Source: Escherichia phage vB_Ec-M-J. From it: DNA of 64,000 bases. The notes under the pieces are model-generated. The model did not search any database. It worked only from the letters and a program-made list of their open reading frames with translations, and was not told where the DNA came from. The translations under genes were made by a program, and so were the position numbers. Location: the sequence record OQ718158.1. One strand, 5' to 3'. Within the stretch, counting starts at the first letter, position 1; the number at the start of each line of letters is the position of its first letter. Positions 38,238 to 38,894 of the stretch are shown here, one piece after another.

Positions 38238-38256
38238 AATAAATGTAGACGGTTGT

Positions 38257-38270
38257 ATTCAGTACTGAAT
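38257..38270. repeat. perfect 14-bp palindrome ATTCAGTACTGAAT, copy 1
   Basis: Palindrome in ORF-free region upstream of HNH gene. Confidence 0.6.
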
Positions 38271-38376
38271 CACTAGGGGAGGTTGTGATTCCCGATTCAG
38301 TAGTTTTAAAGCAGACCCGTATGTGCCTATACATTACAACTAGTGCACATTTAAAACCTAGACGTAGGATGTAAGT

Positions 38377-38390
38377 ATTCAGTACTGAAT
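38377..38390. repeat. perfect 14-bp palindrome ATTCAGTACTGAAT, copy 2 (a truncated third copy near 38492)
   Basis: Identical palindrome about 120 nt downstream of copy 1. Confidence 0.6.
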
Positions 38391-38894
38391 AGCTGAAGGA
38401 CTTATTATGGTACAATACAGTGAGAGGTACTTCGAGTATGCTCAGTTCACCTTTAGCTAAAATGGTCACTGTAGGATATTGTTGCAACAGTATTCAGTAC
38501 TACTTTTTAATTGACATATCATTGGATGAGGTGTAATATGGTTCAAGAAGAAAACTGGGGTTTTTAACACAAAGAGGCCAATATGAAAGTAAGTAAAGAA
38601 ACAGCTAAACAGCTTGAAGAACTTTGCACTGCTGCACCTATGCCTACTCTTGGCTTAATCAAGTTGATGCGTCGAAATAAGCAAAATTCAAAATAATAAA
38701 TAATACAGTAAGATGACCTCCCCTCAATATCATGAGAGTATAGAGAATTGTTGGTCTTCTTACTTCTCAGGTCGATTAGTTAAAAGAGTATAACACGGAC
38801 CTTGTAAGTCTGAATAATCAGTGCAATTCTGATATTGACCTCAAAAATGATATTTTTCTTACATATAAATACTCCATAATATATGGAGAACTAT

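Follow-up and report, generated by a model that had tools for sequence, protein, structure and literature searches.

We examined a locus of Escherichia phage vB_Ec-M-J at which a perfect 14-bp palindrome, ATTCAGTACTGAAT, with the central word AGTACT, recurs upstream of a gene for an HNH endonuclease. The locus lies within a 64,000-nt stretch of sequence record OQ718158.1, which was analysed in full and is referred to here as the window; all positions are those of the window unless another genome is named. The window has a G+C content of 34.9%, carries 120 of its 122 genes on the + strand (by a crude selection of open reading frames, ORFs) and belongs to an Asteriusvirus-type jumbo coliphage of the PBECO4/121Q/G17 group. 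A megablast search with positions 37700-41000 returned 38 phage records, all of them jumbo myoviruses of this group with identities of 87-98%, the nearest being TH47, EC.P1 and WPEC5. Nine relatives, both with and without the HNH gene, were aligned over the locus. An earlier, sequence-only reading had taken the region for an ORF-free spacer that might contain operator sites, a homing-endonuclease target or the remains of an insertion. The features that we place there, predicted ones included, are as follows.

38238-38510, + strand: conserved non-coding module, from just after the stop codon of ORF 38022-38237 to the T-run before a promoter
38257-38270: palindrome copy 1, exact ATTCAGTACTGAAT, in a 16-mer repeat spanning 38255-38270
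38263-38302, + strand: predicted RNA stem-loop formed by ACUGAAUC, the right half of copy 1, and GAUUCAGU at 38294-38301, stacked on GGGGA/UUCCC
38377-38390: palindrome copy 2, exact ATTCAGTACTGAAT, in a 16-mer repeat spanning 38375-38390
38468-38508, + strand: terminator-like hairpin followed by TTTTT, including the quasi-palindrome GGATATTGTTGCAACAGTATTC and truncated copy 3
38492-38503: truncated palindrome copy 3, ATTCAGTACTAC, with its AGTACT core intact
38511-38539, + strand: sigma-70-type promoter, TTGACA / 17-nt spacer / TAATAT
38583-38696, + strand: gene for a 37-amino-acid protein, MKVSKETAKQLEELCTAAPMPTLGLIKLMRRNKQNSK, with an AAGAGG ribosome-binding site
38707-38764, + strand: 12-bp inverted repeat AGTAAGATGACC / GGTCTTCTTACT, a leader hairpin just 5′ of tRNA-Thr, conserved in relatives
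38770-38842, + strand: tRNA-Thr(tgt), found by ARAGORN and scoring 52.8 bits in Rfam
38883-39290, + strand: gene for a free-standing HNH endonuclease, with a likely start at 38895, as annotated in WPEC5
40556-40569: related palindrome copy ATTCAGTACTGAAA, with 1 mismatch, overlapping the stop codon of ORF 40283-40567

The locus is thus re-annotated with a non-coding module that resembles a gene, a promoter, a real gene for a 37-amino-acid protein and a tRNA. To call the region ORF-free was wrong: the 37-amino-acid frame, with its ribosome-binding site, stays open in 8 of the 9 relatives; it has 35 codons in Turkey5. Differences in this frame are largely synonymous, including a serine switch between AGT and TCA, and it is annotated elsewhere as 121Q gp139 and as G17_00174; its product, MKVSKETAKQLEELCTAAPMPTLGLIKLMRRNKQNSK, showed no family match. 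The -35 box of the promoter is invariant among the relatives and the leader between promoter and gene is variable. Nor does the region separate the tRNA cluster from the HNH gene, as had been claimed, since the tRNA-Thr(tgt) gene lies inside it. The dismissal of an 87-codon minus-strand ORF as spurious was sound, given a 1-nt indel inside it among relatives and the differing short ORFs that annotators call there. The possibility that relatives keep the region as coding sequence is thus borne out for the 37-amino-acid frame but not for the module at 38238-38510, where indels among relatives show that neither strand is coding.

The module is approximately 275 nt long and closes with a T-run at 38504-38508. 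It is 96.4% identical to 121Q, compared with 86.6% for the coding sequence upstream and a median of 83% for the window, and is nearly invariant in the nine relatives and in one metagenomic Asteriusvirus-like contig, whether or not HNH is present. The upstream ORF, 38022-38237, has been swapped for unrelated genes in Turkey5 and WPEC5. In these alignments, the module behaves as a gene-like unit in mosaic exchange, kept by every relative while its neighbours are swapped. It gave no match to a tRNA covariance model or in ARAGORN, even at E <= 10, and Rfam at permissive thresholds returned nothing for 38150-38950 except the tRNA.

The HNH ORF scores 21.4 bits against Pfam PF01844, for which the cut-off is 21.4, and has homologues annotated as HNH in GAP32 and further phages. 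The gene is limited to 4 Asteriusvirus records; in G17, 121Q, PBECO4, SD-15 and EJP2 the next gene follows directly after tRNA-Thr, and BF17 and Turkey5 have two tRNA-Thr genes each. Genomes with and without HNH diverge from 38770, the 5′ end of tRNA-Thr, to about 39295. Moreover, the tRNA-Thr of the window is an AT-rich allele, unlike the GCCGACTTAGCTCAG-type allele of G17, 121Q and PBECO4; a non-canonical T-loop (UGCAAUU) marks this AT-rich allele of the HNH-bearing genomes. Homing into a tRNA gene with co-conversion is the pattern expected of free-standing homing endonucleases such as segB. By the alignment, HNH is an unrelated mobile cassette which replaced the resident tRNA-Thr allele with its own, and the analogy suggests homing into the tRNA-Thr gene with co-conversion. 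The true boundary of the cassette is located at the swapped tRNA-Thr allele.

These comparisons bear directly on the proposal that the palindromes, approximately 500 bp from the free-standing HNH gene, are its homing target or the scars of its insertion. A comparison with HNH-less relatives had been suggested for defining the insertion boundaries, and it puts the junctions at 38770 and about 39295, not at the palindromes. The palindrome-bearing block is near-invariant in seven HNH-less relatives (G17, 121Q, PBECO4, SD-15, EJP2, BF17 and Turkey5), and the cassette begins approximately 250 bp downstream of it. Situated 250-500 bp upstream and unchanged between HNH-bearing and HNH-less genomes, the palindromes are neither target nor scar as far as these genomes tell, and we regard such an origin as highly improbable.

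Both 14-bp copies at 38257 and 38377 were correctly read as exact, and so was the truncated third copy near 38492. All three rest on a 16-mer direct repeat, GTATTCAGTACTGAAT, which begins at 38255, 38375 and 38490, with spacings of 120 and 115 bp. We considered the two units of approximately 118 nt as tandem duplicates and rejected this, similarity outside the 16-mer being weak. The frequency of the palindrome is far beyond chance: allowing up to 2 mismatches, the window has 13 matches to the 14-mer, against 0.78 in dinucleotide shuffles (maximum 3). Of two further copies reported nearby, that at 40556 stands, with its single mismatch, but that at 40591 (AGTCGGTACTGAAT, 2 mismatches) is without the AGTACT core and lies within an 11-bp inverted repeat. 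The palindromes are present at the homologous loci of the relatives. Copy 1 keeps its core in 9 of 9, copy 3 is conserved across all with a fourth base that varies between T and C, and copy 2 reads ATTCAGTTCTGAAT in G17 and BF17, where the core is lost.

What does not hold is that the repeat is a peculiarity of this locus, because no other word is as over-represented in the 64-kb window as its core. The corresponding feature spans the entire sequence.

1-64000: iterated palindrome with the consensus (T)C-AGTACT-G(A), comprising 171 copies of AGTACT and 43 of CAGTACTG

The 171 copies compare with 21.5 expected from composition, an excess of approximately 8-fold, and amount to 2.7 per kb or about one per 375 bp. 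The extended form CAGTACTG is in excess by approximately 70-fold (43 against 0.6 expected), and the next palindromic 8-mer reaches only 8 copies. The three 6-mers with the highest enrichment in the window are CAGTAC, GTACTG and AGTACT, and AGTACTGA is its commonest 8-mer of any kind. Most copies (150/171, 88%) are intragenic, and they fall into the three reading frames as 65/30/51; non-coding DNA, 14% of the sequence, holds 21, so that coding and non-coding densities are equal. Shuffling of synonymous codons left 53.9 +/- 5.1 AGTACT and 11.3 +/- 1.5 CAGTACTG, totals that include the unshuffled non-coding copies, compared with 171 and 43 in the real sequence. Spacing is more even than random placement would give (coefficient of variation 0.80 against 0.99 +/- 0.07, P = 0.0024), with 7-17 sites per 4 kb and no position bias along genes. 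One-mismatch neighbours occur at 0.4-3.4 times expectation, and AGTATT/AATACT at 0.9-1.2 times; with neighbours at these ordinary frequencies, it is the exact hexamer that is favoured.

The bases around the hexamer follow its symmetry. At -1 and +1 the preferred bases are C and G, at -2 and +2 they are T and A, and left and right flanks are independent of each other (43 joint occurrences observed against about 40 expected). That the flanks are symmetric despite genes lying almost entirely on one strand agrees with a symmetric reader that recognises double-stranded DNA. A set of small acidic paralogous proteins (39307-39726, 39719-40078, 23717-24172, 26217-26729 and one near 21969; motif EE.(L/F)F(Q/S)(Y/T)....D) carries F-Q-Y or F-S-T residues that are TTCAGTACT read in two frames; here the DNA word is kept and the frame differs.

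Sites are retained over evolutionary time. Of the AGTACT sites of the window, 62% are preserved in 121Q, whereas the figure for all 6-mers is 39%; third codon positions are identical at 81.7% within the motif against 68.3% outside it (p = 1.3e-5). In two topoisomerase II genes, compared at amino-acid identities of about 70-84%, 7 of the 11 window sites recur in Muenster, CBB or fHe-Yen9-04 in exactly the same column of the codon alignment. A structural gene of lower conservation retains the density of sites, but the sites themselves turn over. Taken together, these data make it very probable that the 14-bp palindromes are longer local versions of an AGTACT word that is iterated throughout the genome and selected at the level of DNA and not of protein.

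The word extends well beyond Asteriusvirus. Counts for other phages and for the host were taken from sampled pieces of 11-64 kb, the phage regions covering structural, replication and metabolic genes on both strands. Observed against expected numbers of AGTACT are 113/17 in 121Q, 96/17 in RaK2, 139/17 in GAP32, 22/3.6 in Muenster, 21/3.6 in CBB and 25/3.6 in fHe-Yen9-04, that is, a 6-8-fold enrichment in each. The word is depleted in T4 (6 against 17 expected), in PA5oct (3 against 17) and in a sample of E. coli K-12 (3 against 11.6). The C...G flanks are typical solely of Asteriusvirus and Alcyoneusvirus. In PA5oct (100-150 kb), a 4-5-fold enrichment is seen for words around TGCAGA, ATGCAG and CTGCAG, which may be a different iterated word of that lineage. 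The open-access literature, including that on RaK2, CBB, phAPEC6, Sharanji and fEgEco12, yielded no description of this word, nor any report that these phages carry an iterated palindrome. Short palindromes are usually avoided by phages. Here, a clade of 350-kb phages enriches one 6-8-fold, pays for it in synonymous-codon choice and keeps sites fixed across genera, a pattern that points to a sequence-reading function over the entire phage chromosome, be it self-marking, compaction, replication and recombination, or modification. The enrichment would moreover provide a simple signature for spotting the clade in metagenomes.

The closest parallel in distribution is the highly iterated palindrome HIP1 (GCGATCGC). 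Like AGTACT, it is a short perfect palindrome, over-represented many-fold genome-wide at about one site per few hundred bp, in coding and non-coding DNA alike, and kept by selection. Its abundance and coding-blind distribution in cyanobacteria were reportedly described by Elhai in 2015. AGTACT shares with HIP-type words the palindromic genome-wide over-representation and the independence of coding status and frame; a repair bias among one-mismatch variants, as in HIP-type words, was not found, the neighbours lying at 0.4-3.4 times expectation. HIP1 further differs in that the phage word is AT-rich, belongs to a different lineage and has no cognate methyltransferase identified, and in that many AGTACT sites are positionally conserved across genera.

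The resemblance to HIP1, in abundance and in coding-blind spread, is also what recommends the idea that AGTACT is the target of a phage DNA methyltransferase, accumulating because methylated sites are of use or because repair linked to methylation is biased. The window indeed encodes an orphan C5-cytosine methyltransferase at 24830-25690 (PF00145, Pfam 4.7e-37), Mimasvirus and Eneladusvirus encode an N4-cytosine methyltransferase, and RaK2 DNA has been reported to be methylated (PMC3622015). However, the m5C (5-methylcytosine) of RaK2 is at a CpG site (PMC3622015), and AGTACT contains no CpG. A search for a methyltransferase that tracks the motif over the four genera found none, high-identity copies of the C5 enzyme being confined to Asteriusvirus and the N4 enzyme to Mimasvirus and Eneladusvirus. 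Outside Asteriusvirus, the next relatives of the C5 enzyme are in rV5-like phages and ICP1, at 44-50% identity. Furthermore, the depletion of neighbour words that would make a Vsr-type signature is seen neither for the deamination product AGTATT/AATACT nor for the others, and a Vsr- or deamination-type origin of the word was rejected. The biased-repair model is thereby weakened, and methylation as a whole strikes us as an unlikely explanation.

A host protein was considered as reader as well. The site of the E. coli nucleoid-occlusion protein SlmA, GTGAGTACTCAC, is dyad-symmetric with an identical central AGTACT, and the phage sites could act as decoys or activators of SlmA. In favour of this, the AGTACT-rich genera all infect Enterobacterales, and the Pseudomonas phage PA5oct is without enrichment. 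SlmA requires G1, T2, A4, G5 and a purine at position 3 (PMC3020112), and these flanking bases are missing, indeed disfavoured, in the phage sites, which favour C where SlmA needs the purine. In 214 kb of phage DNA, we found zero full SlmA sites, and SlmA-type flanks, with GTR on the 5′ side of the core and YAC on the 3′ side, at 10 of 342 positions, the chance rate. SlmA was ruled out as the reader on these flanking bases, and we give the idea almost no weight.

Operator sites were a further suggestion for this region. Copy 3 ends 8 nt 5′ of the -35 box at 38511, and all three might control this promoter, and with it the 37-amino-acid gene and tRNA-Thr, possibly by looping over 115-120 bp. 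The resemblance to phage operators lies in the perfect dyads of 14-16 bp, in the copy directly beside a promoter and in a subclass of sigma-70-type early promoters whose spacer contains AGTACTG, always in the position just before the -10 box. Five further promoters of the window are of this kind.

36116-36143: promoter with AGTACTG in the spacer
36537-36565: promoter with AGTACTG in the spacer
37297-37325: promoter with AGTACTG in the spacer
53596-53623: promoter with AGTACTG in the spacer
57905-57932: promoter with AGTACTG in the spacer

Three of these five share an identical 23-nt sequence, CTTGACTAAATAGTTCAGTACTG. Promoters of RaK2 (4240-4350 of the RaK2 piece) read AGTACTTGACA-N9-AGTACTG-ATAAT, so that the arrangement is common to both genera. 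Unlike operators, however, AGTACT copies are genome-wide and mainly inside genes, with equal coding and non-coding densities. Copies 1 and 2 lie 120-250 bp from the promoter, and copy 2 is mutated in G17 and BF17 while the promoter is unchanged. An operator is therefore possible for copy 3, which adjoins the promoter, but the motif as such is not promoter-specific. A promoter role would be a secondary use of AGTACT at most, and we doubt strongly that regulation of promoter 38511 is what the three copies are for.

Other short words that are enriched and spread along their own genome include Chi (GCTGGTGG), DUS/USS (DNA uptake sequence/uptake signal sequence) and KOPS (FtsK orienting polar sequences). 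AGTACT resembles Chi-like self-marking in being rare in the partner genome, as judged from a single host sample, and this fits recognition by a genome-maintenance machine. Whereas those words are asymmetric and strand-oriented, AGTACT is palindromic; it is without a known RecBCD-like reader and, at one per 375 bp, far denser than Chi. We propose that AGTACT would be the recognition site of a protein with two-fold symmetry, that is, a dimer, on double-stranded phage DNA, and that this protein would be phage-encoded or clade-specific. Such a dimeric reader, deduced from the statistics of the word, is a reasonable candidate, short of being probable. Because the sites are many, evenly spread and approximately 45 times denser than in the host sample, a role for the whole chromosome is indicated rather than regulation of one gene; the sites would mark or organise the phage chromosome in self/non-self discrimination, in compaction, or in replication and recombination. 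The idea that the perfect palindrome is a protein-binding site is compatible with this proposal at genome scale, not at this locus.

A bolder version of this proposal is that AGTACT serves as a chromosome-wide signal of the enterobacterial RaK2-like jumbo phages, by which we mean the genera Asteriusvirus, Alcyoneusvirus, Mimasvirus and Eneladusvirus, with a dedicated dimeric reader that separates or organises phage as opposed to host DNA. We hold this to be somewhat doubtful. The three 16-mer copies of the module could then be a high-affinity or nucleation site, or a small RNA of the same system. If true, AGTACT would be a palindromic phage counterpart of Chi or of HIP-type words.

At the locus itself, the palindromes coincide with predicted RNA structure. 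The stem-loop at 38263-38302 has a free energy of -16.8 kcal/mol (z = -2.85) and makes up 48% of the ensemble; in relatives, one of its A-U pairs has become G-U and one further change is disruptive. The hairpin at 38468-38503 is weaker (-10.8 kcal/mol, z = -1.2) and is followed by T5 to T7; the terminator consensus scan made no call here. One pair of the 38468-38508 hairpin occurs as GC, AU and GU types across the relatives. Most substitutions at predicted pairs of the module are wobble-compatible on the + strand alone, and 8 further pair types are seen. We found no terminator between the module and the upstream early promoters at 36116, 36537 and 37297, and the module is therefore probably transcribed. 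An origin of the units between the palindromes from tRNA-like sequence was rejected: the tRNA model and ARAGORN gave no match, the loops are non-canonical, and the hairpin loop GGUUGUGA is not a T-loop.

From the folding models, an RNA function of the module is plausible. Transcription would start at the upstream early promoters and yield a structured 3′ extension or a small stable RNA that ends at the hairpin and T-run of 38468-38508, and half-sites of the palindromes would double as helix strands. Modelling makes such an RNA a fair candidate for what the module is, though we stop short of calling it likely. The closest architectural analogue would be the tRNA cluster of T4, with rnaC, rnaD and segB. 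Both are early tRNA clusters interspersed with small ORFs, with gene-sized conserved non-coding units beside the tRNAs and a free-standing homing endonuclease inside the cluster; the T4 cluster is annotated with two stable RNAs and the endonuclease. The comparison of rnaC and rnaD with the module revealed no sequence or evident structural similarity, and the two clusters differ in that the endonuclease is HNH here and GIY-YIG there.

Pattern scans of IMG/VR and metagenomes for divergent copies of the module returned just 121Q itself and one Asteriusvirus-like contig; a scan of metagenomes with the bare 14-mer was swamped by chance matches. Two metagenomic elements with the same 14-mer, at 1530-1685 of one contig and 760-1060 of another, are unrelated. 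One has seven copies of TCATTCAGTACTG at a spacing of 22-24 bp and an iteron-like look. The other is an array of 122-bp tandem repeats that include the 14-mer; the adjacent ORF has an HUH motif and the look of a RAYT transposase. Within 121Q, a second locus (TAATTCAGTACTGAATCACTGGCGGGGAATGGTTCCCGCC, positions 1806-1850 of the 121Q piece) repeats the layout of window positions 38257-38293, namely 14-mer, CACT and GC-rich hairpin, and stands directly after a stop codon. This composite is absent in RaK2 and fHe-Yen9-04, where a match lies in ordinary sequence.

The same structures support a different account, in which the palindromes exist mainly through RNA. The module would be one or two small structured RNAs or a structured 3′ untranslated region, the 14-mers would be a side effect of helices in which the strands UUCAGU and ACUGAA are used repeatedly, and the likeness to the genome word would be secondary. 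Consistent with this, GAUUCAGU forms a stable hairpin with the right half of copy 1 (z = -2.85). For copy 2, RNAalifold predicts pairing of the left half with GCUGAA, and the sole variable base (A/T) falls in a predicted loop; copy 3 sits inside the terminator-like hairpin. Several + strand substitutions are from A-U to G-U or from G-C to G-U, the second 121Q locus has a like layout, and the module acts like a gene in mosaic exchange. However, Rfam has no match, covariation is statistically null and the 14-mer by itself folds weakly, at -1.7 kcal/mol. Moreover, this account leaves unexplained the 8-fold enrichment of the core genome-wide and in the genes of four genera. We consider it rather unlikely.

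The explanation that we prefer joins a genome-wide AGTACT word under DNA-level selection, a dimeric reader and a local RNA module, and as a whole we judge it somewhat probable. Several observations weigh against it. Regarding the RNA, the covariation of the module is no better than in shuffles, with 1 double-change pair in the alignment and likewise in 290 of 500 shuffles; mean column identity is 96%, which leaves little variation for covariation to act on. The fold of the whole module reaches only z = -1.84, and G17 and PBECO4 break a pair of the best helix. The high identity of the module could partly stem from recent recombination, because the window has other stretches of at least 97% identity. 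Regarding the word, individual copies are dispensable, as the lost core of copy 2 in G17 and BF17 demonstrates, and the host comparison consists of a single 50-kb sample of E. coli K-12. The DNA-reader mechanism is drawn from statistics. Lastly, an RNA-level function of AGTACT is possible, since a palindrome is identical in RNA copied from either strand and almost the whole sequence here is transcribed.

Three minor observations concern neighbouring or related sequence. In RaK2, a 20-bp perfect palindrome, GGGATTCAGTACTGAATCCC, lies between the promoter and the ribosome-binding site of a gene (4371-4390 of the RaK2 piece). In the window and in BF17, a gap of 153 nt (37422-37574 of the window) lies between tRNA-Ser(gct) and tRNA-Met, compared with 7 nt between the corresponding genes of G17. 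Finally, positions 40727-40794 contain a strong promoter (TTGACA-18-TATACT) and, no more than 2 nt beyond it, a canonical terminator with a 12-bp stem and a T-run; the terminator is annotated in G17, and the arrangement may produce a very short transcript or act as an attenuator.

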